This document shows positions 2,043 through 32,967 of a stretch of 33,215 nucleotides of DNA, one piece after another. The notes beneath the pieces are model-generated. The model did no database searches. It saw nothing but the letters and a program-made list of their open reading frames with translations, and had not been told where the DNA came from. The first letter of the stretch is position 1. Each line of letters begins with the position of its first letter. Both the position numbers and the translations under genes were made by a program. Source of the stretch: a virus; UHGV virus genome UHGV-1507039; one strand, given 5' to 3'.

Positions 2043-2371
2043 CAGTTCACCACCTGTTCAAACTCTGCGCTGAACTCAACACGCAGCATACTGACCCGCG
2101 ACGACCATTTTGCGCAGGTCACCTTTATCTGCCTGTAACCATAAGGCGGCATCCACAGAAAGGCCTTCCAGCCCCCGTGCTCAGCCAGAAACGACTCCAG
2201 CGCCGTGGCCTCCTCACGGGAGACAGACAGCGTCACGCTGTACGTTTTCAGGTTGGCATTCAGCCCGGCAGGCGCTCGCTGGGAATAGCCATCACCAAAG
2301 CGCACCTTTCTTACAGAAGGGGCCGAAGCCACATCCATACCGGGTTTCACTTTCCAGCAGAAGGTTTTCAT
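2042..2371 (-). CDS. M: Tail tip assembly protein M
   Basis: 109 aa, lambda M-like; overlaps L start and H end. Confidence 0.92.
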   Translation of the reverse strand: MKTFCWKVKPGMDVASAPSVRKVRFGDGYSQRAPAGLNANLKTYSVTLSVSREEATALESFLAEHGGWKAFLWMPPYGYRQIKVTCAKWSSRVSMLRVEFSAEFEQVVN

Positions 2372-4947: not shown

Positions 4948-5374
4948 ACCGGACTCCTCCTGCGATCCCTTCTGATACTGTCATCAGCATTACGTCATCC
5001 TCCGTCATGTCCGCCACATCCGGGGAAGCGGGGATAACTTCATTCCCGTCCGGGCCAAAACGAACGCCTCCGGCAAGCCCTGCCGCTTTCTGCATCAGCA
5101 CATCATCTTCAGGCTCTTCGTCAGCCTCGCGCCGGTTCAGCAGACTGAAATCCAGCGGATGCATATCCGGATCGCTGAAAAACAGGCTGAGCACGGTGTA
5201 CGTCAGCCCGGAAAAGTGCATATCCAGCAGAACATCATGAAAATAATGGGTACTGTAAAAGCGGTGCCAGTCGGCATACTCCGTGGATGACATCCCGGCA
5301 AGCATGGCGCGCCAGTCGGGTCGCCCCATCTCACGCGCCAGTTTCAGGGCAAAACTCAGCTCACCGTCGAACAC
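4940..5374 (-). CDS. T: T portion of the G-T tail assembly chaperone, made only by -1 frameshift from G
   Basis: 144 aa ORF in -1 frame relative to G; lambda T-like; slippery heptamer at the G/T junction. Confidence 0.85.
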   Translation of the reverse strand: MFDGELSFALKLAREMGRPDWRAMLAGMSSTEYADWHRFYSTHYFHDVLLDMHFSGLTYTVLSLFFSDPDMHPLDFSLLNRREADEEPEDDVLMQKAAGLAGGVRFGPDGNEVIPASPDVADMTEDDVMLMTVSEGIAGGVRYG

Positions 5375-5778
5375 TTTCCCGCAGAAACAGGCTCTGCAGG
5401 CCCGGCGTCCTCTGCCTGTTCAGGGGCATCATTCACCACAAACTCATACATACCGGACAGCCGGTACACCACGTTTTCAGCATGAGAAATTGCCTCTGTA
5501 GGCCAGGTGGTAAGCACTTCCTGCTCAATCTGTTTAACGGCTTCATTCATGGAAGGCTGCTTTGTCTTCTGCGGATGGTTATGCCACAGGGACATCGCCA
5601 CCACAAAAGCAGCGGTTCTGATGGCGTCTTCCACAGTAAACTTCCGGTTGCTGTCTGACTCCGCCTGTTCTGCCTGTCGTTTCATCAGGGCGAGATGCTC
5701 AATACGCTGCAGGGCTGACAGTTCAGAAAGCGTGACGGTCACACCGTTATGTTCAAATGATTCGGTTTTCAGGAACAT
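5356..5778 (-). CDS. G: Tail assembly chaperone G
   Basis: 140 aa, lambda G-like; directly upstream of T and H. Confidence 0.92.
   Translation of the reverse strand: MFLKTESFEHNGVTVTLSELSALQRIEHLALMKRQAEQAESDSNRKFTVEDAIRTAAFVVAMSLWHNHPQKTKQPSMNEAVKQIEQEVLTTWPTEAISHAENVVYRLSGMYEFVVNDAPEQAEDAGPAEPVSAGKCSTVS
5374..5380 (-). promoter_or_regulatory. Programmed -1 ribosomal frameshift slippery site GGGAAAG (G to G-T)
   Basis: Minus-strand GGGAAAG (plus strand ctttccc) near the 3' end of G where the T frame opens. Confidence 0.8.
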
Positions 5779-5793
5779 CGCTGACTCTCCGGA

Positions 5794-6534
5794 TTAACTG
5801 GCGGTGACGTTGATTTCTGCAACCGCAGCAAACTCACCATTACCGGATACGACCGGAATGTTGACCTTGCCTGCAGCAACACCTTTCACGGTGATGGTCA
5901 TACCACTGACCGACACGGTGGCTTTTGTTTTATCCGCAGACACCGCACGGAAGCTCTTGTCGGTTGCGCCTTCCGGCTGGAATGCCACGGTCAGCGTCGT
6001 GCTCTGCCCTTTCACCACCGAGGTGCTGGCAGGCGTCACGGTCATGCCGGTTGCCGCTGTTGCCGTGCTGCGATCTTCTGCCATCGACGGACGTCCTACG
6101 TTGGTGACTTTCACCGTGCGGGTAATCACTTCCTTCGCCGTCACCGCCTTACCGATACTGCTGACCCAGCCGCGGAACACATCGACCGTGCCGTTCGGGA
6201 AGCGGATTTTATAGGCACGGGTATCACCTTCATTAAACCACGCCAGCAGCGCCTGCTGCCCCTGCTCTCCGGGCATCCACGCCAGCGTGAAGCTGGTATC
6301 TCCGGCAGATTTCTGCCCCTGCCCGGTCGCAGTCCAGTCTGCATCTTCATCATCGAGATAGCTGTCGTCATAGGACTCAGCGGTCAGTTCGCCGGGCGTC
6401 AGGTCTTTAACTTTTGCCAGACGCGACCAGTCAACGTCTGAAAGCGGGTTCGCATAAGGGTCACCGCTCCCCTTATAAACCCACAGGGTGGTCCCGGCAC
6501 CTTTCACCGGCATTACAGGATTTGGTACAGGCAT
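5794..6534 (-). CDS. V: Major tail tube protein V
   Basis: Lambda V-like from MPVPNP; C-terminal Ig-like region; ORF extends 10 codons upstream to 6564. Confidence 0.92.
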
Positions 6535-6541
6535 AGCGTCC

Positions 6542-6937
6542 TCACATTTCATAGGTAATGACATACGTCAGATCGGCTGAACTCCACAGGCCCGCATCAT
6601 CGTCGCGCCGGTAGTCATAGCCACTGGCCACCATACTGGTGATCAAATCTGACAGTGCCGGGATATCGCTCATCACCGGATAAATCCGGGACTCCATCCA
6701 CGAATCCAGCTCTGAATCCGGCACCTGAGCAGGCAGGAAAACTTCAATATGCAGCTCCGCCTGCCAGGTATCGCTGTCCAGCTCTTCGCCCGTGTATTCA
6801 GCGCCGGTGAGATAAACGGCAATTGCCGGAAAATCTTCCTCATCAAAAACAGCGGGGCGACCATCAAAAAGCGTCGCCCCGGTGTCATGCTTCTCCAGTG
6901 CATCCAGTACGGCTGCACGGAGTTCAGTATGTTTCAT
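6542..6937 (-). CDS. U: Tail terminator protein U
   Basis: 131 aa, lambda U-like ([22 protein letters not shown]). Confidence 0.92.
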
Positions 6938-7512
6938 CGCTTTATTACCATTCTCAGTTGATGCTGCAGCGCATAGCCCAGCTCTTTCGGAAGACGTTCA
7001 CGCCGTATCCGTTCAATATTCTGTTTAAACGCCGTGGTCAGCGGCACCGCCATCGGGATTTTCACCACATCAATGGGGTAACGGTTTTTCCCGGCCACAC
7101 GCTGCATGACATGCCACCGGCCATTTTTCAGTTGCTGAATAAACGCGCCGGGAATACGACGGTTTCCCACCACAAGCGCACTGCCGCCACCTTTCAGGGC
7201 TGAACGCTGCCCCTTTTTACGACGCCTGCGTCGGGACAGGACAACCCGCGCGTTACCCAGCTTTATTACGGGCAAATCCCCCCGGTTAACCTTGATTCTG
7301 GCCTGCGGATTTTTGACCGTGGCCCTTTTCAGCCTGGCCCTTTCCTTTACCAGTTTCCGGCGTACCTTTGTCTCACGGGCAACCTGTGCCACCGACTGCG
7401 ATATCGCGGATGAAGCAACGCGGTTAATGGCCATTGCGGCGGCACCGGGCACCGCCGTTCTGCTGATACGGCTGAGGTTTTCAACGGCCTGCTCAAGACC
7501 TTTTATGGCCAT
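6934..7512 (-). CDS. Z: Tail completion protein Z
   Basis: 192 aa, lambda Z-like; ATGA overlap with U. Confidence 0.92.
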   Translation of the reverse strand: MAIKGLEQAVENLSRISRTAVPGAAAMAINRVASSAISQSVAQVARETKVRRKLVKERARLKRATVKNPQARIKVNRGDLPVIKLGNARVVLSRRRRRKKGQRSALKGGGSALVVGNRRIPGAFIQQLKNGRWHVMQRVAGKNRYPIDVVKIPMAVPLTTAFKQNIERIRRERLPKELGYALQHQLRMVIKR

Positions 7513-7523
7513 ACATCCCCCTT

Positions 7524-7877
7524 TCAGCGGCGACGGTTAACGGCAGGCGGTACGCCCCGCCCAAGCCAGAGATGACAGCTTCCGCCATCATCCGGCGAAA
7601 TCCGGTCTATCCAGAAGTTTTCCTCACCGATGGTCAGCGTGTCGCCGCGCCGCAGCTGCCGCACATCATCAGTCCGGACAAACAGGGACGGGCTGGAGCC
7701 TTCAACGCGCACGCCCTGTCCGGCATAGCTGATATTTTCAGGGTCATCAAAAACACCACGTATCACAGCACCGGACTGCTCACCGGATGTCATGGTGGCT
7801 GACGTTCCCATGTACCCGCGTATCGTTTCATCGGCGCAGGCAATGGCAGCATCGAACAGGTTATCGAAATCAGCCAC
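7524..7877 (-). CDS. FII: Head-tail joining protein FII
   Basis: 117 aa, lambda FII-like (MADFDNLFDAAIA). Confidence 0.92.
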   Translation of the reverse strand: MADFDNLFDAAIACADETIRGYMGTSATMTSGEQSGAVIRGVFDDPENISYAGQGVRVEGSSPSLFVRTDDVRQLRRGDTLTIGEENFWIDRISPDDGGSCHLWLGRGVPPAVNRRR

Positions 7878-7888
7878 AGCGCCTCCCG

Positions 7889-8287
7889 TTATTGCATTCT
7901 GGCCAGGCCGCGCTCTGTCATTTCGGCTGCCACACCGGCAGAGACACGAAACGCCGTTCCCGGCAGCACAAATGCCACAGCCTCATCCCGCGTGGCGTGA
8001 AGTGCATCAGTATGCAGCTTCACCAGTGCCACGACCGTGACCAGTTCAGACGTATCCAGAATCACGGTATCCGGCTGCGCTGATACCACCTCATTTTCAT
8101 GTCCGGTCAGCACATTTTCCGGGCTGAGGGGGGTATCCTGACCGGCAGTGTCGCCCGTGTCATCAAGCTCTTCTTCCAGCTCTGCCACACGGAGCGCCAG
8201 TTCTTCTTTCGTCCCCGTCAGGCTGATATCACGGTTCAGTTGTTCACCCAGCGAGCGGAGACGGGCAATCAGTTCATCTTTCGTCAT
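7889..8287 (-). CDS. FI: DNA packaging protein FI
   Basis: Lambda FI-like from MTKDELIARLRSLGEQL; longer ORF extends to 8326. Confidence 0.88.
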   Translation of the reverse strand: MTKDELIARLRSLGEQLNRDISLTGTKEELALRVAELEEELDDTGDTAGQDTPLSPENVLTGHENEVVSAQPDTVILDTSELVTVVALVKLHTDALHATRDEAVAFVLPGTAFRVSAGVAAEMTERGLARMQ

Positions 8288-8328
8288 GGACTCCTCCACA
8301 GAGAAACAATGGCCCCGAAGGGCCATGA

Positions 8329-9354
8329 TTACGCCAGTTGTACAGACACGAACTCATCAGGGTCAGCCAGCAGCATCAGCGGTGCTGACTGAATCATGGT
8401 GAACTCTCGCGCCGGATCGCCGGATGTCTTCCAGTTTTTCGGATAACGGGGAGACGCATTAATACCCTCACTCAATGCATCCGCATCCTGAATACAGCCA
8501 TAGGTGCGCAGACCGCGTGCATGAGTGTTACCCAGCACCATCGTGTTGTCCGGCAGGAAGTTCTTTTTGACGCCGTTTTCCACGTACTGTCCGGAATACA
8601 CGACGATGGCCACATCGCCATACATCCCCTTATAGGACACCGCTTTACCCAGGTCTTTCACCGCTGTCTCCAGCTCGGAATGAGAGCCACGACGGGTATC
8701 CAGCTTCTCCCTGACGGCTTTGAAGGAACGGAACAGCGCCCAGCCTTTCGGATCGAACACGATGATATTCACCACACCGCTGGCGTTCAGCGCGTAGGCT
8801 TCGATATCGTCGGTCGGGTCATACGTGGACTTGTCACGCTTGCTCCACTCCGTGCCGCCGGACTGCGTGATGTTATTCTCCTCACTGCGGCCCATATCCA
8901 CCTCAACCGGATCGAAGGCTTCACCGGTCATGGTGTATTTGCCCTTAAGCACGGCAGAAACTGCCTGCATCTCTTCGACCTGAGCAATGGCCAGCTCTTC
9001 GTCACGCATGTTCTGCATGATGATGCGACGGCGGCGGTAAGCCGGGTCCGCCAGATTCTGCGGATCTTCATCCGGCAGGCGACGCAGGGTCATCTGCGGA
9101 TTCACTTCATGCTTCGGCTTGACATATCCCGGCGTAAATTCAGAGGTGGAGCCGCCACGGGAACGGATAACCTCACCGGAAACAATCGGCGAAACGTACA
9201 GCGCCATGTTTACCAGTCCCGGAATTTGTGAGAGATAGACTTTCTCCGTGGTGAAGGGATAGCTCTCACGGAAAAAGAGACGCAGAAACAGCGGATCAAA
9301 CTTAAATTTCTGCTCATTTGCCGCCAGCAGCTGGGCGGTTGTGTACATCGACAT
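8329..9354 (-). CDS. E: Major capsid protein E
   Basis: 341 aa from MSMYTTAQLLAANEQKFKFDPLFLRLF, lambda E-like. Confidence 0.93.
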   Translation of the reverse strand: MSMYTTAQLLAANEQKFKFDPLFLRLFFRESYPFTTEKVYLSQIPGLVNMALYVSPIVSGEVIRSRGGSTSEFTPGYVKPKHEVNPQMTLRRLPDEDPQNLADPAYRRRRIIMQNMRDEELAIAQVEEMQAVSAVLKGKYTMTGEAFDPVEVDMGRSEENNITQSGGTEWSKRDKSTYDPTDDIEAYALNASGVVNIIVFDPKGWALFRSFKAVREKLDTRRGSHSELETAVKDLGKAVSYKGMYGDVAIVVYSGQYVENGVKKNFLPDNTMVLGNTHARGLRTYGCIQDADALSEGINASPRYPKNWKTSGDPAREFTMIQSAPLMLLADPDEFVSVQLA

Positions 9355-9409
9355 AAAAAAATCCCGTAAAAAAAGCCGCACAGGCGGCCTTTAGTGATGA
9401 AGGGTCAGG

Positions 9410-9742
9410 TTAAACGATGCTGATTGCCGTTCCGGCAAACGCGGTCCGTTTTTTCGCCTCGTCGCTGGCAGCCTCCGGCCAGAGCACATCCTCATAACGG
9501 AACGTGCCGGACTTGTAGAACGTCAGCGTGGTGCTGGTCTGGTCAGCAGCAACAGCAAGAATGCCAACGGCAGCACCGTCGGTGGTGCCATCCCACGCAA
9601 CCAGCTTACGGGTGGAGGTATCCGGCATCAACGGAGTCATTGCTGGCGTTTTCTTACTCAATCCGCCGGGCGCGGTTGCGGTATGAGCCGGGTCACTGTT
9701 GCCCAGCGGCTGGTAATGGGTAAAGGTTTCTTTGCTCGTCAT
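9410..9742 (-). CDS. D: Head decoration protein D
   Basis: 110 aa from [12 protein letters not shown], lambda D-like. Confidence 0.92.
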
Positions 9743-9751
9743 AAACATCCC

Positions 9752-11051
9752 TTACACTGGTGTGTTCAGCAAATCGTTAACGGCATCAGATGCCGGGTTA
9801 CCTGCAGCCAGCGGTGCCGGTGCCCCCTGCATCAGACGATCCAGCGCAGTGTCACTGCGCGCCTGTGCACTCTGTGGTGCTGCGGCCAGAATACGGCGGG
9901 CCGTTTCCACGGTCATACCGGGGGTTTCGGCCAGCACGCGTGCCTGTTCTTCGCGTCCGTGAGCCTCCTCACAGTTGAGGATCCCCATAATGCGGCTGTT
10001 TTCTGCCGCAACCGCTGCGGTGATCTGCGCGTTCACGTCCGGCTGCGCCGCGCTGGCGTTTTCGCCCTCCGTCGCTGGCACCACGTCAGTAACGTCAGCC
10101 TGCGAAGCAGTGGCTGAAACAGTTGTTGATTGAGTCTCTTTGGTCATTCGCCCTCCTGAGAGACGGGATTTACGTGCATCCAGTGCATCACGCATGACGG
10201 TGATCGCATCGGTACTGTTAACAAGTTCATCAGCCAGTCCGGCATCAATGGCCTCCTGACCGCTGTACACTGCAGCCTCGGTATCCAGCACAGCCTGCAC
10301 GGACAGGCCGGTATATGCCGACACCTTCTGTGCAAACATCCGGCGGGTTGCATCCATCCGGGACTGCAGTGTTTCCCGGACATCATCCGGTAGATGGCTG
10401 TAGGGGTTGCCATCCACCTTATGGCTGCCGCTGTAAATCAGCGTGATTTCCACGCCCTGTTTCTCCAGCGCAGCACCGTAATTACTGTGAGCCATCATGA
10501 CGCCGATGGAGCCTGTCCGGGCGGTCTGCGTGACCAGACGCCGGGAGGCGGCACTGGCAAGCAGCTGACCTGCGCTGCAGTTCATGTCATTGGCCAGCGC
10601 CCATACCGGCTTTATGTCACGCACACGGGCGATGATGTCAGCGCAGTCAAATGCCCCTGCCACCATTCCGCCGGGCGTGTCCATATCCAGCAGAATGCCG
10701 TCCACCATCGGGTCGCTGGCAGCCTGTTGCAGACGGGCGATAATGCCGTTGTAACCGGTCATCCCCGAATACGGCTGCAGCGCCCGCGTCCGGCTGACCA
10801 GCGTGCCGGAAACCGGCAGCACGGCGATGCCGTTCATGACCTGATAACTGCGGGCCTGTCGTGGTCCGTCATCATCACCGGATAACGCCAGCGTCGCGGG
10901 TGCCTCTCCGGCAGTCAGGCTGTCGCCGGACACCGCATCCGTCAGGCGACTGATCCCAAGCTGGCCTGCAAGCGCACAAAAGAAAACCCGCGCATAGGCG
11001 GGTTCAAGCATCAGCGGCTCATTAAAAGCCATGCTGGCAATATGCGGGAGA

Positions 11052-11071
<20 letters not shown>
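9752..11071 (-). CDS. C: Head maturation protease / scaffold C, with nested in-frame Nu3 scaffold in the 3' part; GTG start
   Basis: Lambda C-like from (V)TAELRNLPHIASMAF; GTG preceded by strong SD AGGAGGAG; ClpP/SppA-like serine protease region. Confidence 0.88.
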
Positions 11072-14752
<3,681 letters not shown>

Positions 14753-14778
<26 letters not shown>

Positions 14779-15298
14779 TCAGCAACCCCGGTATCAGTTC
14801 ATCCAGCGCGGCTGCTTTGTTCATGGCTTTGATGATATCCCGTTTCAGGAAATCAACATGTCGGTTTTCCAGTTCCGGAAAACGCCGCTGCACCGACAGG
14901 GGGATCCCGTCGAGAATACTGGCAATTTCACCTGCGATCCGCGACAACACGAAAGTACAGAATGCGGTTTCCACCACTTCAGCGGAGTCTCTGGCATTCT
15001 TCAGTTCCTGTGCGTCGGCCTGCGCACGCGTAAGTCGATGGCGTTCGTACTCAATAGTCCCTGGCTGGAGATCTGCCTCGCTGGCCTGCCGCAGTTCTTC
15101 AACCTCCCGGCGCAGCTTTTCGTTCTCAATTTCAGCATCCCTTTCGGCATACCATTTTATGACGGCGGCAGAGTCATAAAGCACCTCATTACCCTTGCCA
15201 CCGCCTCGCAGAACGGGCATTCCCTGTTCCTGCCAGTTCTGAATGGTACGGATACTCGCACCGAAAATGTCAGCCAGCTGCTTTTTGTTGACTTCCAT
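14753..15298 (-). CDS. Nu1: Terminase small subunit Nu1
   Basis: 181 aa, lambda Nu1-like (MEVNKKQLADIFGASIRTIQNWQEQGMPVLRGGGKGNEVLYD). Confidence 0.95.
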
Positions 15299-22646: not shown

Positions 22647-22937
22647 TCATCTTTTAACTCCATATACCGCCAATACCCGTTTCATCGCGGCACTCTGGCG
22701 ACACTCCTTAAAAATCAGGTTCGTGCTCATCTTTCCTTCCCGTTCTTCCCTGGTAGCAAACCGGTAATACACCGTTCGCCAGACCTTACCTTCGATAACC
22801 AGAAGACCTGCCCGTGCCATTTTAGCCGCGGCCTGATTTATGCTGGTTACTGTTGCGCCTGTTAGCGCGGCAACGTCCGGCGCACAGAAGCTATTATGCG
22901 TCCCCAGGTAATGAATAATTGCCTCTTTGCCCGTCAT
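22647..22937 (-). CDS. ren: Ren
   Basis: 96 aa, lambda Ren-like (MTGKEAIIHYLGTHNSFCAPDVAALTGATVTSINQAAAKMARAGLLVIEGKVW). Confidence 0.92.
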   Translation of the reverse strand: MTGKEAIIHYLGTHNSFCAPDVAALTGATVTSINQAAAKMARAGLLVIEGKVWRTVYYRFATREEREGKMSTNLIFKECRQSAAMKRVLAVYGVKR

Positions 22938-23635
22938 ACACTTGCTCCTTTCAGTCCGAACTTAGCTTTAATTTCTGCGATCTTCGCCAGAGCCTGTGCA
23001 CGATTTAGAGGTCTACCGCCCATAACAGGAAGTTGTTTTACTGGTTCAGGTATCGTCTCACCACGGTTAATTCGCGCTGTCATACAGGTCAGTTCATCGG
23101 CAGCCTTGCGCCGTAATTCCGCATCAGTAAGCGCATTGGCCCGCATGTTCTGATACAGGTTGGTAACCAGCCAGTAGTGCGCGTTTGATTTCCACGGATA
23201 AGACTCCGCATCCGGATACAGGCCTCGCTTCCGGCAATACTCGTAAACCATATCAACCAGCTCGCTGACGTTTGGCAGTCCGGCGATAACGGATGCTTCT
23301 TCCCGGCACCATGCAACAAACTGCCCGGGTGATGGCAGAAATGGTCGATTCTGCCGACGGGCTACGCGCATTCCTGCGTTAACCTGTTCCATTGTGGTGA
23401 TCCCGTTTTCCCGGAAAGCCAGAACCCACTGGCGGCGGATTTCGTTCAGTTCGTTCTGGTCACGGTTAGCCAGACTCGCCGGGAAAGTTGCCAGTAACTG
23501 GCTGAACACACCGTTGATGATCTGCGCTACCTGCTGTACCTGTGGCTTTTCGTCGTACTGTTCCGGCATGTTGTTGGCGATCCGACGCATCTGCTCACGG
23601 TCAAAGTTAACCATCTGTGCGGCGATGTTTTTCAT
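22934..23635 (-). CDS. P: Replication protein P (DnaB helicase loader)
   Basis: 233 aa, lambda P-like (MKNIAAQMVNFDREQMRRIANNMPEQYDEKPQVQQ). Confidence 0.95.
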   Translation of the reverse strand: MKNIAAQMVNFDREQMRRIANNMPEQYDEKPQVQQVAQIINGVFSQLLATFPASLANRDQNELNEIRRQWVLAFRENGITTMEQVNAGMRVARRQNRPFLPSPGQFVAWCREEASVIAGLPNVSELVDMVYEYCRKRGLYPDAESYPWKSNAHYWLVTNLYQNMRANALTDAELRRKAADELTCMTARINRGETIPEPVKQLPVMGGRPLNRAQALAKIAEIKAKFGLKGASV

Positions 23636-24531
23636 AGATCCACCCCGTAAATCCAGTCAGTGTTTGTCAGGTCGAGTTTTGGTTTTCCGGCTGTCACGCC
23701 AGCCTGTTGCTTGTTACGGTTGATTTCGAGCTGGGTCCACTTGTCGCGGAGTTTGGCCGGACTCAGCACGTTACCGGACCAGAAGTTGTCCTGGCAGGCC
23801 CAGCGGAAAAGCACACACATATCGCGGTGGTTACGTCCGTCACGTTCACGCATCAGGCGGATATCGTTAGCCCACCCAGCAAAATTCGGTTTTCTGGCTG
23901 ATGGCGCGATGGTCTTCACCATGTCAAACATCCACTCTGCGGCGGTCAGGTCTTCTGCTGTTCCCCACTTACTGCCGCTCTGAATTGCAGCATCCGGTTT
24001 AACCACAGAAAGATCGTTTTCTGGCTGGTCAGAGGATTCGCCAGAATTCTCGGACGAATAATCTTTTCTTTTTTCTTTTGTAATAGTGTCTTTTGTGTCC
24101 CCCTGTTTTGAGGGATAGCAATCCCCCAATTTGAGGGATGTTTTATCCCTCGTTTTAGGGGATTTTCCCTCGTTTTGAGGGATACACCATTCTGAGATGT
24201 TTTTATTTGGTCCAAACATGCCGCCTTGCTGCTTGATAATATTCATTCTGACGAGTTCTAACTTGGCTTCATTGCACCGTTTGACAGGTAACTTTGTAAT
24301 CTCGCTAAGTTGAGAATCGGTGATTCTGTCCATTGGTTTATTCCACCCATAGGTTTTACGCAGAATGGCAAGCAGCACTTTAAACTGTCGCTTGGTCAGA
24401 TCTGCGCCTGAATAAGCCTCAAGCAGCATATTTGATAGTCTGGCGTAACCATCATCGAGATCTGCCACATTACGCTCCTGTCCGGTAAAGTTACCTCTGC
24501 CGAAGTTGAGTATTTTTGCTGTATTTGTCAT
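23632..24531 (-). CDS. O: Replication initiator O
   Basis: 299 aa from MTNTAKILNFGRGNF, lambda O-like; ori iterons inside the gene; longer ORF extends to 24576. Confidence 0.95.
   Translation of the reverse strand: MTNTAKILNFGRGNFTGQERNVADLDDGYARLSNMLLEAYSGADLTKRQFKVLLAILRKTYGWNKPMDRITDSQLSEITKLPVKRCNEAKLELVRMNIIKQQGGMFGPNKNISEWCIPQNEGKSPKTRDKTSLKLGDCYPSKQGDTKDTITKEKRKDYSSENSGESSDQPENDLSVVKPDAAIQSGSKWGTAEDLTAAEWMFDMVKTIAPSARKPNFAGWANDIRLMRERDGRNHRDMCVLFRWACQDNFWSGNVLSPAKLRDKWTQLEINRNKQQAGVTAGKPKLDLTNTDWIYGVDL
24040..24183 (-). repeat. ori: ori-lambda: four ~19-bp iterons (24098..24183) followed in the O reading direction by an AT-rich region (24040..24097)
   Basis: Plus strand shows four repeats of the form tccc(c/t)..ttt(t)gaggga; adjacent tcttttcttttttcttttgtaat stretch. 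Confidence 0.9.
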
Positions 24532-24540
24532 AATGACTCC

Positions 24541-24608
24541 TGTGGATTGATCCAGTCTTTCTACATCAGGCCTCAAAACTGTTGCAGCAGTCTTGAGGCT
24601 TTTCTTTT
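24541..24608 (+). ncRNA. oop: OOP-like antisense RNA with promoter pO (-35 TTGAGT 24506..24511, -10 CATAAT 24529..24534) and intrinsic terminator (24570..24608), antisense to the 3' end of cII
   Basis: Near-consensus sigma70 promoter with 17-bp spacer; hairpin GCCTCAA..TTGAGGC then TTTTCTTTT; same layout as lambda OOP. Confidence 0.6.
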
Positions 24609-24844
24609 GTCAGCACCATGGCTACTTTCTTTGCTAGCTTTGCTAATTCCTCGTCTTCAACACCCCACTCCAGCACAGCCAGAAGCATGGCCATCTTTGG
24701 GATAAAGCTGTCTTTCCATCGCGAAATTTGCGATTCATTAATCCCTAATGCATCAGCAACCTTTCGCTGACCACGTACAGCAATTCGATTCAGGATGTTG
24801 CTTGTGATTGCATTCGCTTTCTTGCGAGTACTTGTAAGTTGCAT
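24566..24844 (-). CDS. cII: Transcriptional activator CII (non-lambda allele)
   Basis: 92 aa from MQLTSTRKK; conserved SQISRWK and MLLAVLEWGV motifs; about half identical to lambda CII by eye. Confidence 0.8.
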   Translation of the reverse strand: MQLTSTRKKANAITSNILNRIAVRGQRKVADALGINESQISRWKDSFIPKMAMLLAVLEWGVEDEELAKLAKKVAMVLTKEKPQDCCNSFEA

Positions 24845-24901: not shown

Positions 24902-24945
24902 TTCCCGCATTTCGGCGGGAATAAGGACCATGACTGTTAAAGAGC
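24902..24945 (-). promoter_or_regulatory. nutR: nutR: boxA (GCTCTTTAA, 24937..24945) and boxB hairpin (TTCCCGC-cgaaat-GCGGGAA, 24902..24921) between cro and cII
   Basis: BoxA consensus match and stem-loop on the minus strand just downstream of cro; same boxB sequence recurs upstream of N. Confidence 0.7.
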
Positions 24946-24952
24946 AATTTGC

Positions 24953-25138
24953 TTATGCCGCTTTGCGATAAGCACTTTCTTGATACTTCAGGGCGCCAGC
25001 TGTAACGACTTCCAGTCGATAGGCGTCTTTCTCTGGGATGACTTCCTTCCACTGAGAGACTGCTGCATCGCTAATGCCTAACGCTTTAGCTACCGCACGC
25101 TGGGTTCCGAAGTGGTCGATAACATCTTTCTTGTACAT
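24953..25138 (-). CDS. cro: Cro-like repressor
   Basis: 61 aa (MYKKDVIDHFGTQRAVAKALGISDAAVSQWK...), HTH; divergent from cI across an 80-bp operator region. Confidence 0.85.
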   Translation of the reverse strand: MYKKDVIDHFGTQRAVAKALGISDAAVSQWKEVIPEKDAYRLEVVTAGALKYQESAYRKAA

Positions 25139-25218
25139 AGACTCGCTCCGAAATTAAAGAACACTTAAATTATCTATCAAAGGAATCTTAAGTCAAGTTT
25201 ATTTAAGATGTCTTAACT
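25139..25218. promoter_or_regulatory. OR: Right operator/promoter region: candidate pR (minus strand -35 TTGACT 25191..25196, -10 ATAATT 25168..25173), pRM and operators built on CTTAA(A)/TTAAG palindromes
   Basis: 80-bp cI-cro intergenic region; palindrome TTAAGATGTCTTAA at 25203..25216; CTTAAG at 25187..25192; CTTAAATTATC over the pR -10. Confidence 0.6.
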
Positions 25219-25869
25219 ATGAATACACAACTGATGGGTGAGCGTATTCGCGCTCGCAGAAAAGAACTTAAGATTAGGCAGGCTGCCCTTGGCAAGATGG
25301 TTGGCGTGTCTAATGTTGCTATTTCCCAATGGGAGCGTTCTGAAACTGAGCCCAATGGCGAAAACCTATTGGCTTTAGCCAAGGCTTTACAGTGCTCCCC
25401 TGATTACTTGTTGAAAGGAGAAGATAGTCTTTCAAACATTGCCTATCACAGCAGGCATGATCCAAGAGGTTCGTATCCTCTAATTAGTTGGGTAAGCGCA
25501 GGATGTTGGATGGAAGCTGTAGAGCCATATCATAAGCGTGCAATAGATAACTGGTACGATACAACCGTAGATTGTTCAGAAGATTCGTTTTGGCTGGACG
25601 TAAAGGGTGATTCGATGACGGCTCCAGCCGGTCTTAGCATCCCGGAAGGGATGATAATACTAGTCGATCCTGAAGTAGAACCTCGTAATGGGAAGCTGGT
25701 AGTGGCAAAGCTCGAAGGAGAAAACGAGGCAACTTTCAAGAAGTTAGTTATTGATGCTGGCAGAAGGTTTCTAAAACCACTTAACCCACAATATCCGATG
25801 ATTGAGATCAACGGGAACTGCAAAATCATCGGTGTAGTTGTCGATGCAAAAATAGCAAACCTTCCATAA
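25219..25869 (+). CDS. cI: CI-type prophage repressor (N-terminal HTH, C-terminal LexA/S24 autopeptidase domain)
   Basis: 216 aa; HTH near VGVSNVAISQWERSE; Ala-Gly cleavage site (VSAGCW), GDSM serine and downstream Lys; C-terminus like 434-family repressors; no SD before the ATG. Confidence 0.9.
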   Translation: MNTQLMGERIRARRKELKIRQAALGKMVGVSNVAISQWERSETEPNGENLLALAKALQCSPDYLLKGEDSLSNIAYHSRHDPRGSYPLISWVSAGCWMEAVEPYHKRAIDNWYDTTVDCSEDSFWLDVKGDSMTAPAGLSIPEGMIILVDPEVEPRNGKLVVAKLEGENEATFKKLVIDAGRRFLKPLNPQYPMIEINGNCKIIGVVVDAKIANLP

Positions 25870-25890
25870 GGGGCATTCGCCCCTTTTTTT
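25870..25890 (+). terminator. Intrinsic terminator immediately after cI
   Basis: GGGGC-attc-GCCCC followed by TTTTTTT. Confidence 0.75.
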
Positions 25891-25914
25891 CTTTCCTTTA
25901 AAAATCAAAGCAAA

Positions 25915-25995
25915 ACTTAAGCTTCGCAACAAAATTTAAGTTTTCTTCAAAAACACTCTTGACCAATAGTTAAAGAAATCTTAAATTTAAGTCAT
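25915..25995 (+). promoter_or_regulatory. OL: Left operator/promoter region: candidate pL (-35 TTGACC 25959..25964, -10 TTAAAT 25981..25986) overlapped by palindrome CTTAAATTTAAG (25980..25991); further CTTAAG and TTTAAG motifs upstream
   Basis: Promoter-like hexamers with 16-bp spacing upstream of nutL and N; operator-like palindromes share the motif seen in OR. Confidence 0.55.
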
Positions 25996-26033
25996 CGGCA
26001 GGACGCTGGTAGCCAAACGGAACAGATTGGCAG

Positions 26034-26076
26034 GCTCTTTAACATTGATGGGATTGTCCCGCCGAAATGCGGGAAC
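26034..26076 (+). promoter_or_regulatory. nutL: nutL: boxA (GCTCTTTAA, 26034..26042) and boxB hairpin (TCCCGC-cgaaat-GCGGGA, 26057..26074)
   Basis: Same boxA and boxB sequences as the nutR site; about 110 bp upstream of N. Confidence 0.7.
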
Positions 26077-26181
26077 CAAAGAGTAGTTGGCTTTGGGGTG
26101 ACGTGAAGTGCAGCTGCACGACGGCAACCGGAAGATAAGCACCCGGCGCGTCACCGCCAAAGTCAATCATCGGAGGTCAAC

Positions 26182-26454
26182 ATGGCAGTAGTCATTACAT
26201 ATCTGGCTGACGATAACGCCAGAAATCGCCGCAGAGCACGCAGACAGGCTCAACGTGAGCAGGCAATGCAAGAACAGCGACTGGCGCGAAAAATTGCGCT
26301 AAAGCTCTCTGGTTGCGTCAGAGCAGACAAAGCAGCATCACTCGGAAGCCTTCGCTGCAAGAAGGCAGATGAATGCAGTGGAAGTATTTGCCTGCCAAAC
26401 GTAGCCATTTACGCGGCAGGCTACCGGAAATCAAAACAACTGACGGCGAGATGA
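26182..26454 (+). CDS. N: N-type transcription antiterminator (non-lambda allele, P22/21-like)
   Basis: 90 aa; N-terminal arginine-rich motif NARNRRRARRQAQREQ; C-terminus AIYAAGYRKSKQLTAR resembles P22 gene 24 product as recalled; preceded by SD GGAGG. Confidence 0.8.
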   Translation: MAVVITYLADDNARNRRRARRQAQREQAMQEQRLARKIALKLSGCVRADKAASLGSLRCKKADECSGSICLPNVAIYAAGYRKSKQLTAR

Positions 26455-26470
26455 TAAATTAATTTGCTAA

Positions 26471-27052
26471 TTACTTGTTTTTGCCATGCTTATCCTGAGC
26501 GATAAGTTCATCCATAAGACTGTCTTTCTTCCCAGCAAACCTAATGTAGCACTCATTTCTATAGCGTTCCGGGATAACAAAACGGTCGATTTCAGGATAT
26601 CCAGTAGCAGAAGGTACCCGAATAAGAAGCCCTTTTTCGAGCAATGAGATTGCTTCAGGGCTTCCCTTTTCTGTCTTTAGCTGGTTATTAGCGGCTACAG
26701 CGAATGCCAAATACGCTCTTTCTCCAAGAGTTAACGAATCAAACAAATCTTGCACGTATTTCTCTTCTTTAGATTTGCGCTTCTGAGCAGCGAATATCTC
26801 AATTCTTTCAGTCACAGCGTGATAAGCGGAATTAACAACGCCGTTAAGCACATAGCTAACGCAAAACAACAGGATGTAATACATCCAGTAATGAGGAAGG
26901 ATTTCTGGATTATGCAGGTTTATCCATTCTTTTACGCTTACAGGCATAACAATAATCAATATGATCAGGATGATTAGCATATGAATCAACTGTTTAAGTG
27001 TCATTCCTTGCAGGAAAAAATGCATTAGTTCCTGCCACCATGAGTTGTTCAT
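26471..27052 (-). CDS. sieB: Superinfection exclusion protein SieB
   Basis: 193 aa, lambda SieB-like; N-terminal hydrophobic segments; antisense to the pL operon just downstream of N. Confidence 0.85.
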   Translation of the reverse strand: MNNSWWQELMHFFLQGMTLKQLIHMLIILIILIIVMPVSVKEWINLHNPEILPHYWMYYILLFCVSYVLNGVVNSAYHAVTERIEIFAAQKRKSKEEKYVQDLFDSLTLGERAYLAFAVAANNQLKTEKGSPEAISLLEKGLLIRVPSATGYPEIDRFVIPERYRNECYIRFAGKKDSLMDELIAQDKHGKNK

Positions 27053-27266
27053 CGGCGTTTCTCTTTTGCTCTCTGTAGGGGTGAATAGAGTTTATCCGAT
27101 TTCTCGCTGTAGGGGTACACGAGAACCACCGAGCCTGATGTGGTTAAAAGACAGGCATACTAATAAACACTGCACTGTGTATTCATTCCAACGAGTGAAT
27201 ACACTGAGCAATGTCGCTCGTAACTAAACAGGAGCCGACTTGTTCTGATTATTGGAAATCTTCTTT

Positions 27267-27312: not shown

Positions 27313-27681
27313 ATGTCAAACATCAAAAAATACATCATTGATTACGACTGGAAAGCATCAATAGAAATTGAAATCGACCATGACGTAATGACAGAGGAAA
27401 AACTTCACCAGATTAATAATTTCTGGTCAGACTCTGAATACCGACTCAATAAACACGGCTCTGTATTAAATGCTGTATTAATCATGCTGGCGCAACATGC
27501 TCTGCTTATAGCAATTTCAAGCGACTTAAATGCATATGGTGTTGTGTGTGAGTTCGACTGGAATGATGGAAATGGTCAGGAAGGATGGCCTCCAATGGAT
27601 GGTAGCGAAGGAATAAGAATTACCGATATCGATACATCAGGAATATTTGATTCAGATGATATGACTATCAAAGCCGCCTGA
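27313..27681 (+). CDS. ea10: Ea10 early protein
   Basis: 122 aa, lambda Ea10-like (MSNIKKYIIDYDWKASIEIEIDHDVMTEEKLHQINNFWSDSEYRL). Confidence 0.85.
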   Translation: MSNIKKYIIDYDWKASIEIEIDHDVMTEEKLHQINNFWSDSEYRLNKHGSVLNAVLIMLAQHALLIAISSDLNAYGVVCEFDWNDGNGQEGWPPMDGSEGIRITDIDTSGIFDSDDMTIKAA

Positions 27682-27753
27682 GCGCGGCGTTACCGCATAC
27701 CAATAACGCTTCACTCGAGGCGTTTTTCGTTATGTATAAATAAGGAGCACACC

Positions 27754-27918
27754 ATGCAATATGCCATTGCAGGGTGGCCTGTTGCTGGCTGCCCTTCCGA
27801 ATCTTTACTTGAACGAATCACCCGTAAATTACGTGACGGATGGAAACGCCTTATCGACATACTTAATCAGCCAGGAGTCCCAAAAAATGGATCAAACACT
27901 TATGGCTATCCAGACTAA
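27754..27918 (+). CDS. cIII: CIII (FtsH inhibitor, 54 aa)
   Basis: [54 protein letters not shown], lambda CIII-like; below the 60-aa ORF-track cutoff. Confidence 0.85.
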   Translation: MQYAIAGWPVAGCPSESLLERITRKLRDGWKRLIDILNQPGVPKNGSNTYGYPD

Positions 27919-29869: not shown

Positions 29870-30024
29870 AACATCCTCACGATAATATCCGCGTAGGCAC
29901 GATCACTTTCGTCTACTCCGTTACGAAGCGAGGCTGGGTATTTCCCGGCCTTTCTGTTATCCGAAATCCCCTGAAAGCACAGCGGCTGGCTGAGGAGATA
30001 AATAATAAACGGGGAGCTGTATGA
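29866..30024 (+). CDS. Small early protein, lambda orf60a-like (52 aa)
   Basis: [52 protein letters not shown]; ATGA-coupled to exo stop and to the next gene start. Confidence 0.6.
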
Positions 30025-30578
30025 CTGATTTCACCGGAAGCAATACTCCTGCCGAACATCGCGACAGCTGGCGCACACCACCAGAGATTTTTGCTGCGCT
30101 TAATGCAGAGTTCGTTTTTCAACTTGATGCTGCCGCCAGCGAAAAAAACCGACTATGTCGGCTTTTTATCTCACAGGAGCAGAACACATTAACCACTTCA
30201 TGGCCTGAAGCAATGGGATATGCCTCTGGTTATGTCTGGTTGAATCCACCATACAGCAATATTTCCCCTTTTGTGAAAAAGGCAGCCACTGAAAACAAAT
30301 TCAGCAGTGTGGGATGTGTAATGTTATTACCTGCTGACACATCTGTCGGATGGTTTCATGAAGCGATACAAACCGCCAGTGAGGTCAGATTCATCACGGC
30401 AGGACGACTGGCATTTATTAACCCACTCACCGGGAAACACGTCAGTGGAAATAATAAAGGCTCGATGCTCATTATCTGGCACCCATACCCCCGTACACAC
30501 TGCCACTTTACGACCGTTGATCGTGGAGAGTTGATGGCGTTCGGCTCAAGGATTCTTGCCCGTCGGGAGGCTGCATGA
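30021..30578 (+). CDS. Second phage Dam-type DNA N6-adenine methyltransferase (early-left operon)
   Basis: 185 aa; NPPYSNI motif, W.TP and VGWF motifs shared with the nin-region methyltransferase; clearly homologous but divergent. Confidence 0.8.
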   Translation: MTDFTGSNTPAEHRDSWRTPPEIFAALNAEFVFQLDAAASEKNRLCRLFISQEQNTLTTSWPEAMGYASGYVWLNPPYSNISPFVKKAATENKFSSVGCVMLLPADTSVGWFHEAIQTASEVRFITAGRLAFINPLTGKHVSGNNKGSMLIIWHPYPRTHCHFTTVDRGELMAFGSRILARREAA

Positions 30579-31513: not shown

Positions 31514-31856
31514 GGCCTGTCAGTTTCTTAAGATATCCAGACCAACCGCCACCAACTGGATACGAACAGGCCGCCTACAGGCAACACGTAAAGATCCAAC
31601 CAAGCCAAAATCTCCTTACCTCACAACACGGCAAGCCTGCATTGCGGCGCTTCAGTCTCCGCTGCATACTGTCCAGGTGAGCGCGGGTGATGGCATAACA
31701 GAGGAAAGAAAATGTCACTCTTCCGCAGAAATGAAATATGGTATGCCTCGTATTCGCTCCCGGGCGGGAAACGAATTAAGGAATCTCTTGGCACAAAGGA
31801 CAAGCGGCAAGCTCAGGAGTTGCACGACAAGCGAAAAGCAGAACTCTGGCGAGTAG
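31485..31856 (+). CDS. xis: Excisionase, AlpA/MerR-like HTH; 3' end uncertain because the frame overlaps int by about 145 bp
   Basis: From [36 protein letters not shown] (excisionase-type winged HTH); position immediately upstream of int. Confidence 0.55.
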
Positions 31857-32875
31857 AAAAGCTAGGGGATTTACCTGATGTCACTTTTGAAGAGGCCTGC
31901 CTAAGATGGCTTGAGGAAAAAGCTGATAAAAAATCTCTCGATTCAGATAAAAGCCGGATTGAGTTCTGGCTTGAACATTTTGAGGGTATAAGGCTTAAAG
32001 ATATCTCGGAGGCAAAGATTTACTCTGCTGTAAGCAGAATGCATAACAGAAAGACGAAAGAAATATGGAAACAGAAAGTTCAGGCCGCCATCAGGAAAGG
32101 TAAAGAACCGCCTGTTTATGAACCAAAGCCAGTATCAACTCAGACAAAGGCAAAGCATCTTGCCATGATAAAGGCCATTCTCCGTGCTGCAGAACGCGAC
32201 TGGAAGTGGCTGGAAAAAGCGCCTGTCATCAAGATACCAGCGGTCAGAAACAAGCGAGTCAGATGGCTGGAAAAGGAGGAAGCAAAACGCCTTATTGATG
32301 AGTGCCCCGAACCACTGAAATCTGTCGTCAAGTTTGCGCTGGCAACTGGTCTGAGAAAGTCGAACATCATAAATCTGGAATGGCAACAAATCGACATGCA
32401 GCGACGAGTTGCCTGGGTGAATCCAGAAGAGAGCAAATCAAACCGCGCCATTGGTGTGGCGCTGAACGATACCGCCTGTAAAGTGTTGCGTGATCAAATA
32501 GGCAAGCATCACAAATGGGTGTTTGTACATACCAAGGCGGCTAAGCGAGCAGATGGAACATCAACGCCTGCGGTCAGGAAGATGCGCATCGACAGCAAGA
32601 CATCATGGCTATCAGCTTGTCGTCGTGCAGGAATTGAAGATTTCCGTTTCCATGACCTCAGACACACCTGGGCAAGCTGGCTGATTCAGTCAGGCGTCCC
32701 ATTATCAGTGCTTCAGGAAATGGGCGGATGGGAGTCCATAGAAATGGTTCGTAGGTATGCTCACCTTGCGCCTAATCATTTGACAGAGCATGCGAGGAAA
32801 ATAGACGACATTTTTGGTGATAATGTCCCAAATATGTCCCACTCTGGAATTATGGAGGATATAAAGAAGGCGTAA
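31712..32875 (+). CDS. intD: Tyrosine integrase, DLP12 IntD-type
   Basis: 387 aa; C-terminal catalytic region with HDLRHT and RRYAHL(a)P motifs; adjacent to tRNA-Arg. Confidence 0.93.
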
Positions 32876-32890
32876 CTGATTGAATTGTAA

Positions 32891-32967
32891 TGGCGCGCCC
32901 TGCAGGATTCGAACCTGCGGCCCACGACTTAGAAGGTCGTTGCTCTATCCAACTGAGCTAAGGGCGC
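32891..32967 (-). tRNA. argU: tRNA-Arg (anticodon UCU), argU-type; likely carries the prophage att core at its 3' end
   Basis: 77-nt minus-strand sequence GCGCCCTTAGCTCAGTTGGATAGAGCAACGACCTTCTAAGTCGTGGGCCGCAGGTTCGAATCCTGCAGGGCGCGCCA with cloverleaf features, anticodon loop CTTCTAA and encoded CCA. Confidence 0.9.

Follow-up and report, generated by a model that had tools for sequence, protein, structure and literature searches.

The region at positions 25139-26454 of the 33,215-nt stretch of viral DNA analyzed here (the window) is, with a probability that we put at about 0.93, a classical repressor-Cro-operator switch of the phage 21 / P22 type in a lambda-like E. coli prophage. At this same probability, and judged by sequence comparison, the primary immunity region of the prophage would have the immunity specificity of coliphage 21 and of Salmonella phage P22 immC. 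In the region lie cro and cI as a divergent pair, OR and OL with three parts each, pL, nutL, and the N gene, and the early genes are all full length. The phage 21 / P22 immC switch found here is real and intact; it is well known and common, not a new immunity type. The earlier note on this DNA had described the region as heteroimmune to lambda, which agrees with the low identity to lambda of cI (35%), cro (26%), cII (48%), and N (22%) vs 98-99% for O, P, and ren. It had also proposed to assign the immunity type by sequence comparison of cI, cro, and N; this comparison leads to the long-known phage 21 / P22 immC type, which the note had missed. The operators, repressor, and Cro of P22 and phage 21 have been under study since about 1980, and structures have been solved. 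Poteete and colleagues reportedly found in 1980 that the repressors of the two phages are interchangeable, as work on lambda immP22 hybrids reportedly did; an explicit statement that the two repressors share specificity was searched for in the literature and was not found.

What was observed directly comprises the identities of the genes, the sequences and positions of the operators, the hexamers of the promoters, the selective constraint, and the mosaic map. The 216-residue cI repressor (25219-25869, + strand) consists of a helix-turn-helix domain and an S24 autocleavage domain (Pfam HTH_3 and Peptidase_S24, the latter with an E value of 6e-31). Its amino acid identity is 99% to the cI of phage 21 (213/216) and of HK629, 97% to that of JEP4, and 93% to P22 C2, from which it differs at 15 of 216 residues. 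Only three substitutions relative to P22 C2 (K16E, S54A, and D68E) lie in the 68-residue domain crystallized with operator DNA (2R1J), and seven separate residues 1-76 from the P22 C2 N-terminal domain 1ADR. The recognition-helix segment VGVSNVAISQWERS is unchanged, i.e., the P22 C2-type helix-turn-helix domain that marks the phage 21 / P22 immC group is present with its recognition helix intact. An Ala-Gly cleavage site and a Ser/Lys dyad are present as well, with A94-G95, S132, and K174 aligning with the cleavage site and catalytic dyad of lambda cI. At the nucleotide level, cI is 90% identical to phage 21 cI, and the differing 10% is nearly all synonymous (dS = 0.62 vs phage 21 and 1.48 vs P22; dN/dS 0.01-0.03). 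Despite this cI dS of 0.62-1.48, the non-coding OR is 95-97.5% identical, and its preservation while cI synonymous sites diverged by 0.6-1.5 substitutions per site illustrates the tie between repressor and operator. On the 3' side of cI, a terminator scan located an intrinsic terminator (AAGGGGC-attc-GCCCCTT followed by a T run; 25868-25892, + strand), where the phage 21 record annotates a terminator too.

The P22 repressor binds as a dimer to an 18-bp site and contacts its outer bases, not the central four (PMC4267663). In the window, the operator unit is 18 bp long, with two 7-bp half-sites around 4 central bp (ATTTAAG-N4-CTTAAAT type), and all six such operators, three each in OR and OL, lie at the positions annotated in the P22 and phage 21 records. 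Scanning the 33-kb window with the complete 18-bp pattern ATTTAAGNNNNCTTAAAT and at most three mismatches returned 8 matches vs 1.12 ± 1.14 in shuffled sequence (0 of 100 shuffles reached 8); five of the eight are OR1, OR2, OR3, OL2, and OL1. OR1 (ATTAAAGAACACTTAAAT; 25153-25170), at an annotated operator position and with one mismatch to the 18-bp consensus, is identical in P22, phage 21, JEP4, and HK629. OR2 (ATCAAAGGAATCTTAAGT; 25176-25193; three mismatches) aligns with the P22 and phage 21 operators, as does OR3 (ATTTAAGATGTCTTAACT; 25201-25218), which was also recovered by the motif scan and ends 1 bp before the cI ATG. On the other side of cI, OL2 (ATTTAAGTTTTCTTCAAA; 25934-25951; two mismatches) is identical to P22 OL2, and OL1 (GTTAAAGAAATCTTAAAT; 25969-25986), mapped from the phage 21 and P22 annotation and by the motif scan, spans the pL spacer and five of the six bases of the -10 element. 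The weakest match, OL3 (TCAAAGCAAAACTTAAGC; 25905-25922), was placed by column mapping from the operators annotated in phage 21 and P22 and is consensus-like in its right half only. The CTTAA(A)/TTAAG half-site of the earlier note is the true operator half-site. The palindromes quoted with it are present at the places given, but they are fragments of the 18-bp units, not whole units: TTAAGATGTCTTAA (25203-25216) lies within OR3, CTTAAATTTAAG (25980-25991) comprises the right half of OL1 and the next 5 bases only, and CTTAAG occurs in OR2 (25187-25192) and OL3 (25916-25921). A further copy of CTTAAG inside cI (25267-25272) is probably due to chance.

Over its 80 bp, OR differs from phage 21 at two bases and from P22 at four. 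An outer base of OR2 is changed compared with P22 and phage 21, and the left half-site of OL1 reads GTTAAAG here vs AATTAAG in both phages; the relative operator affinities may therefore differ from those of P22 and phage 21. Across 32 distinct OL variants, 21 of 36 spacer columns, 11 of 42 half-site columns, and 0 of 6 columns of the -35 element are variable. Across 16 OR variants, the corresponding values are 7/42 for half-sites vs 5/26 for spacers, a variation too small to separate the two, and the OL signal is the clearer one. The exact OR variant of the window recurs in 26 other loci, each with a cI protein 99-100% identical to that of the window, and another 38 loci, largely drawn from the same retrieved set, have the phage 21 OR variant.

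Operator copies had been placed over pR and pL, and our promoter scan bears this out, with OR1 and OR2 on pR and OL1 on pL. pR (25169-25196, - strand; TTGACT - 16 bp - GATAAT, 10/12 matches) lies where the early right promoter is annotated in P22; OR2 overlaps its -35 element by 3 bp, and OR1 overlaps its -10 element by 2 bp. For pL (25959-25994, + strand; TTGACC - 17 bp - TAAATT), the putative start at 25994 was carried over from the annotated starts in phage 21 and P22. The hexamers of both promoters, although obtained from an independent scan, lie exactly at the positions of the P22 record. PRM (25181-25215, + strand) was transferred from P22, with a -10 element TAAGAT at 25204-25209 and a predicted 5' end at 25215. 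In the P22 record (BK000583), the promoter is annotated together with a "5' nt of RM transcript" that lies 4 nt upstream of the c2 ATG, and the stretch from -10 to ATG differs from P22 by one base; a mapped P22 PRM start was sought in the literature and was not found. As had been noticed from the sequence, cI lacks a Shine-Dalgarno sequence (anti-Shine-Dalgarno duplex of -1.4 kcal/mol vs -5.8 for cro, -6.1 for cII, and -10.2 for N). However, the suggestion of a leaderless cI transcript as in lambda may have to be relaxed: with the 5' end taken from the P22 GenBank annotation, 4 nt before the AUG, the transcript would be near-leaderless, not strictly leaderless, with a 4-nt leader AACU.

The 61-residue Cro (24953-25138, - strand; Pfam P22_Cro, E 8.7e-28) is identical at 58 of 61 positions to the solved P22 Cro (1RZS) and 97% identical (59/61) to phage 21 Cro; the all-alpha P22-type Cro, divergent from the repressor, that also marks the phage 21 / P22 immC group is present. 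The cII-type activator (24566-24844, - strand; 92 residues; Pfam Phage_CII, E 2.4e-44) is the P22 c1 allele, with an identity of 89% to P22 C1, 48% to lambda CII, and 24% to phage 21 CII. A candidate pRE activator site directed towards cI, TTGC-N6-TTGT (24822-24835, + strand), was read from the sequence at the position of the annotated P22 C1 binding site / PRE, with P22 positions 1802-1815 mapped by offset from the blastn alignment. By analogy with P22, phage 21, and lambda, on whose biology our view of binding, cooperativity, PRM activation, transcript 5' ends, and RecA cleavage is built, dimers of the 216-residue repressor would occupy the 18-bp operators in a lysogen, three at OR and three at OL. 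Occupation of OR1 and OR2 would block pR, and that of OL1 would block pL, while PRM, with its -10 element inside OR3, would keep cI made from a transcript starting about 4 nt before the AUG and lacking a Shine-Dalgarno sequence. Upon DNA damage, RecA-stimulated self-cleavage at Ala94-Gly95 by the S24 domain (Ser132/Lys174) would inactivate the repressor, whereupon Cro, with its P22_Cro fold, could bind the same operators. N, the HK620 allele, would read boxA/boxB at nutL and nutR, leading to antitermination of the two early operons, and the P22-c1-type CII would activate pRE through TTGC-N6-TTGT, thereby establishing lysogeny.

The N/nut module is the only part without a characterized counterpart. 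The 90-residue N antiterminator (26182-26454, + strand; Pfam N_peptide, E 2.1e-15) is the HK620/mEp213/JEP4 allele, 99% identical to JEP4 N at the amino acid level and 97.8-98.9% identical to HK620 and mEp213 N at the nucleotide level. nutR (24903-24945, - strand), found by aligning the window with the nutR sites that are annotated in phage 21 and P22, consists of boxA GCTCTTTAACA followed by a boxB stem-loop, UUCCCGC-CGAAAU-GCGGGAA, whose hairpin folds with -13.7 kcal/mol (z -2.4). nutL (26034-26077, + strand) has the same boxA, followed by UCCCGC-CGAAAU-GCGGGA, a boxB shared with JEP4 and distinct from the phage 21 and P22 ones. A common boxA and an identical boxB core at both sites are what is expected of a lambdoid N/nut system. 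The boxB loop has 6 nt, CGAAAU, i.e., GAAA between an unpaired C and U, and the arginine-rich motif of N, NARNRRRARRQAQREQ, has lambda-like spacing without an equivalent of Trp18. The module recombines freely with the imm21 switch: among 85 compared loci with this cI, about half carry this N/nut type and about half the phage 21 type, and the type of the arginine-rich motif and the type of boxB co-occur without exception. We see an even chance that this motif and the CGAAAU boxB form a distinct, biochemically undescribed peptide-RNA specificity.

The mosaic junction proposed between cII and O is real and lies at about 24532-24556. The one proposed between N and sieB is not a junction with lambda, and sieB does not belong to the lambda-like part: this gene (26471-27052, - strand; Pfam SieB, E 1.1e-25), outside the coordinates covered by the earlier note and inside the non-lambda block, is the P22 allele, with 84% identity to P22 SieB and 23% to lambda SieB. 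Lambda homology is absent between 24557 and 27072 and starts again only from 27073 and 27162; on the lambda map, the junction with lambda is to the left of sieB, within the shared promoter block of this gene (27073-27157), and the prophage lacks lambda ral/orf28. Near the end of N, on its 3' side, a sub-junction (26392-26450) separates HK620/JEP4-like from P22-like sequence. By sequence, the non-lambda block is itself mosaic, with P22-type cII, 21-type cro/cI, HK620-type N/nut, and P22-type sieB. It provides a clean example of sub-module lambdoid mosaicism, with separate known phage lineages as the sources of cII, the cro/cI switch, N/nut, and sieB. The reported absence of rexAB stands, with no + strand open reading frame of at least 40 aa between cI and N, and P22 and phage 21 are likewise without rexAB. 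A PADLOC scan of ten accessory open reading frames returned an orphan methyltransferase only and no further exclusion system, and an Rfam scan of 22.0-28.5 kb returned the lambda cIII thermoregulator only, with no nut, oop, or other family.

Among the matches listed, the segment is present at 99.9-100% identity in 15 of 15 complete E. coli genomes, and many wild animal and human isolates of E. coli have it in their chromosome. The prophage adjoins tRNA-Arg at the argU site, where K-12 has the cryptic prophage DLP12. In E. coli LWY6, this prophage is 12.8 kb shorter through loss of head and tail genes that are present in the window. Colinearity of the window with LWY6 throughout proved wrong outside 17.2-30.0 kb, and gene coordinates borrowed from the LWY6 record are valid only within these limits.

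The changes in the OL1 left half-site, the OR2 outer bases, and the OR3 central bases relative to P22 and phage 21, together with the 15 of 216 residues at which cI differs from P22 C2, could be taken to indicate a novel specificity of immunity that is heteroimmune towards phage 21 and P22 as well, if such few repressor and operator differences were enough to change recognition. We consider this very improbable, as the helix-turn-helix residues are those of P22 C2 and the substitutions in the DNA-binding domain fall outside the recognition helix, OR1 is identical in all five phages compared, and the half-site cores are the least variable columns. Moreover, the exact OR variant accompanies a 99-100% identical cI in 26 other loci, and the phage 21 OR is found in 38 more. 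Only slightly less improbable is an inert relic of a decaying prophage, whose intact-looking genes would have ceased to be expressed or needed. The LWY6 copy lacking its 12.8 kb and the argU location, where K-12 has cryptic DLP12, would fit such decay, but the early genes are all full length, dN/dS is 0.01-0.03, OR is near-invariant across deep synonymous divergence, and the window still has the head and tail genes that LWY6 lacks; even a defective prophage with kil and N would still need a repressor.

The chance that a laboratory lambda imm21 or lambda immP22 hybrid contaminated an assembly is negligible. Lambda O, P, ren, bet, and exo do stand here beside 21/P22-type immunity, as in the classical hybrids, but none of the sequenced hybrids combines P22-type cII with HK620-type N/nut and P22-type sieB, cI is only 90% identical to phage 21 in nucleotides, and the segment, which lies beside tRNA-Arg, is part of the chromosome in many wild animal and human isolates. 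The phage 21 / P22-type switch places a common lambda-like E. coli prophage, integrated at argU, in the imm21/P22 immC immunity group, an assignment that predicts which superinfecting phages the host resists; its worth as a discovery is small, and its practical value lies in annotation.

With lambda, the prophage shares the divergent cI/cro, the tripartite OR and OL, the PRM -10 element in OR3, a cI start without Shine-Dalgarno sequence, N/nut antitermination, and the cII/pRE logic, and its flanking genes O, P, ren, ea10, cIII, kil, gam, bet, and exo are 97-100% lambda. In contrast, the lambda cI and Cro, 17-bp operators, and rexAB next to cI that define imm lambda are absent: the repressor is 35% identical, Cro belongs to another fold family (P22_Cro) at 26% identity, the operators are 18 bp long and of other sequence, rexAB, ral, and orf28 are missing, and the putative cI leader has 4 nt vs 0. 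Phage 21 (imm21, OL657228) has nearly the same cI (213/216), Cro (59/61), and OR (78/80); its six operators, pR, pL, and the terminator that follows cI are arranged and spaced as in the prophage, and it has no rexAB. However, its boxB at both nut sites and its N arginine-rich motif are of another type, its cII allele is unrelated (24%), and it carries ral where the prophage has P22-type sieB. P22 immC (BK000583; 1ADR, 2R1J, 3JXB, 1RZS) has a nearly identical repressor DNA-binding domain and Cro, the same 18-bp operator architecture, 76 of 80 bases of OR, an identical OL2, a PRM region one base off between -10 and ATG, and related c1/cII (89%) and sieB (84%). It differs in the cI C-terminal domain, which here is closer to phage 21, in N (gene 24) and boxB, in its replication genes 18/12, which are lambda O/P here, and in its immI (ant/arc/mnt) region, of which none was seen in the window, which spans most, not all, of the prophage. 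The HK620/mEp213/JEP4 N-nut module is the same as here, with N 97-99% identical in nucleotides and nutL and nutR boxB as in JEP4. The N genes of HK620 and mEp213 matched, whereas a cro-cI query gave no match to either among the matches listed; in these two phages, the module therefore probably accompanies other immunity regions. Here, HK620-type N-nut is joined to an imm21-type switch, as it is in JEP4, N7, and CUS-3.

The regulatory region at 25139-26454, which the earlier note had proposed to be a heteroimmune immunity region with CTTAAAT-type operators, is real, and that reading was correct and careful; by sequence comparison, its type is that of phage 21 and P22 immC, a textbook and already known switch, here carried by an E. 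coli prophage that is common. Megablast against phage records returned P22 and its relatives, phage 21, lambda imm21, HK629, JEP4, N7 and CUS-3. Both regulators have close matches in these phages: cI (25219-25869, + strand; Pfam HTH_3 and Peptidase_S24), counted from the ATG beside OR3, shares 213 of 216 residues with phage 21 cI, its identity being 97% with JEP4 and 93% with P22 C2, and the product of cro (24953-25138, - strand; Pfam P22_Cro) has 58 of its 61 residues in common with P22 Cro (1RZS). Residues 1-76 of cI can be aligned with the N-terminal domain structure of P22 C2 (1ADR), with three substitutions among the 68 residues whose structure was solved on operator DNA (2R1J, 3JXB) and the helix-turn-helix segment, VGVSNVAISQWERS, unchanged. 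A94-G95, S132 and K174 align with the lambda cI equivalents as the S24 cleavage site and dyad. At the level of sequence, the repressor DNA-binding domains and operators of phage 21 and P22 are near-identical, and the same operators are reportedly recognised by both repressors, a result said to come from Poteete, Ptashne, Ballivet and Eisen in 1980.

Between cro and cI, the 80-bp spacer has two base differences from phage 21 and four from P22. Annotation transferred from the phage 21 (OL657228) and P22 (BK000583) records places OR1 at 25153-25170, OR2 at 25176-25193 and OR3 at 25201-25218 on one side of cI, and OL3 at 25905-25922, OL2 at 25934-25951 and OL1 at 25969-25986 on the other. The 18-bp pattern ATTTAAG-N4-CTTAAAT, allowing up to three mismatches, has eight matches in the window, where shuffles lead one to expect 1.12 ± 1.14 (0 of 100 shuffles attained eight), and five of the eight cluster on both flanks of cI. 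The palindromes quoted in the earlier note are correctly positioned, but are parts of this larger 18-bp unit; CTTAAATTTAAG, for instance, combines the right half of OL1 with the five bases that follow it and stops just short of the inferred pL start at 25994. In the published P22 complex (PMC4267663), the repressor dimer binds an 18-bp site through its outer bases and makes no contact with the central four, which accounts for the CTTAA/TTAAG half-sites and their variable centres. An additional operator-like 18-mer, ATTTCAAGCGACTTAAAT, with two mismatches and a disrupted left half-site, lies at 27514-27531 within the ea10/DUF2528 gene; the number expected by chance covers such a match.

An independent consensus scan and the P22 annotation agree on the positions of both early promoters. 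On the minus strand, pR (TTGACT-16-GATAAT, 25196..25169) is overlapped by OR2 over 3 bp of its -35 and by OR1 over 2 bp of its -10, OR1 also covering the start region. On the plus strand, pL (TTGACC-17-TAAATT, 25959..25987) has its spacer and five of the six -10 bases covered by OL1. A terminator hairpin lies just 3' of cI (25868-25885), and there is no plus-strand ORF between cI and N. In the P22 record, the first nucleotide of the PRM transcript is annotated 4 nt upstream of the c2 ATG, and from the PRM -10 (TAAGAT, 25204-25209) to the ATG the window differs from P22 by one base, which would place the PRM 5' end at 25215 with a leader of AACU. On this best available evidence, the cI transcript would be near-leaderless. 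The description of cI as leaderless-looking is fair for the sequence, although the P22 annotation implies a leader of 4 nt. The anti-Shine-Dalgarno pairing energy upstream of cI is -1.4 kcal/mol (cro, -5.8; cII, -6.1; N, -10.2). The start codon at 25219 is backed by the solved P22 C2 domain, whose N terminus is MNTQL. In the phage 21 record (1858-2430), cI begins at an internal ATG with an annotated ribosome-binding site and is 190 aa long, a form in which the DNA-binding domain would be missing its first helices, whereas the 216-aa form, begun right after OR3, agrees with the solved N terminus. The shorter form is probably an annotation error that arose because cI has no Shine-Dalgarno sequence.

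Despite high silent divergence (dS 0.62 to phage 21 and 1.48 to P22; dN/dS 0.01-0.03), the cI protein remains 99% and 93% identical to the two repressors, respectively. Non-coding OR (25139-25218) is 95-97.5% identical to phage 21 and P22 and thus better conserved than the silent sites of cI, the pattern that would be expected if nearly every base were constrained. A scan of IMG/VR returned 365 relatives of the repressor, the best 80 of them at 99-100% protein identity; among these 80 loci and the reference phages, OR occurs in 16 variants, with the exact OR of the window in 26 other loci and that of phage 21 in 38. Across 32 distinct in-register OL variants, 21 of 36 spacer columns and 11 of 42 half-site columns (mostly in OL3) vary, as do 0 of 6 in the pL -35.

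The window is a lambda-like prophage in the orientation opposite to the lambda map, with tail and head genes at about 1-15.3 kb and the lysis genes, Q and the nin region between these and ren (22647-22937), P (22934-23635) and O (23632-24531), the last three on the minus strand. Lambda homology (98%) extends from ninB as far as 24556, ending in a short block common to lambda and P22 just upstream of O, so that the proposed cII/O junction is borne out, with a crossover between about 24532 and 24556. The junction placed between N and sieB is not: the product of sieB (26471-27052, - strand; Pfam SieB) shares 84% identity with P22 SieB against 23% with lambda SieB, and therefore the lambda boundary lies beyond sieB. 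Lambda homology returns only at 27073-27157, a sieB promoter block common to lambda and P22, and then from 27162. At 27157-27162 that block joins directly to sequence downstream of ral, with 340 bp of lambda (34056-34395) that hold ral and orf28 missing in between. There are additional joints within the non-lambda block. Its phage 21-like portion comprises cro, OR, cI and OL, and the cII-type gene (24566-24844, - strand; Pfam Phage_CII) corresponds to the c1 allele of P22, with 89% identity to it against 24% to phage 21. Beyond sieB follow ea10, cIII, kil, gam, bet, exo and integrase, in that order. The Rfam Lambda_thermo model (cIII thermoregulator RNA) matches at full length at 27741-27799, scoring 88.5 bits where the gathering score is 50.

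Segment 24500-27100 (2.6 kb) is present at full length and 99.9-100% identity in all 15 complete E. coli genomes among the matches listed, and at least 80% of it is covered in 76 of 5426 genomes. The integrase gene and then tRNA-Arg(TCT) (32891-32967) occupy 31712-32967, and in E. coli LWY6 the prophage sits between ompT/appY and tRNA-Arg, which is the argU site, where K-12 carries the cryptic prophage DLP12. The LWY6 prophage, otherwise 98% identical, lacks a 12.8-kb head/tail block (window 1970-14793), the gap being bounded by truncated genes for tail protein L and DNA packaging; the window retains the block and may represent a complete phage. At 30021-30578, an ORF of 185 aa has matches to orphan methyltransferase models of PADLOC (E 7e-33); its LWY6 counterpart, at 750 bp, is longer, and the prophage sequences diverge between 30034 and 30673.

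A loose end worth noting is the HK620-type N/boxB pair. The boxB of each nut site and the first 60-odd codons of N (26182-26454, + strand; Pfam N_peptide) are of the HK620/mEp213/JEP4 type at 97-99% nucleotide identity, and the last 20 codons of N, like sieB, are P22-like. The arginine-rich motif of this N allele is NARNRRRARRQAQREQ, and nutL (26034-26077; boxB 26057-26074) and nutR (reverse strand, about 24903-24945; boxB about 24906-24923) share their boxA, GCTCTTTAACA, as well as a boxB core of CCCGC-CGAAAU-GCGGG. No biochemical study of the NARNRRRARRQAQREQ/CGAAAU boxB pair was found in the literature searched. Among 85 loci sharing the repressor, the pairing of N motif and boxB has no exceptions: about half carry NARNRRRARRQAQREQ, always with CCCGC-CGAAAU-GCGGG at both nut sites, and the other half or so the phage 21 motif, always paired with the phage 21 boxB; P22 has an N motif/boxB pair of its own.
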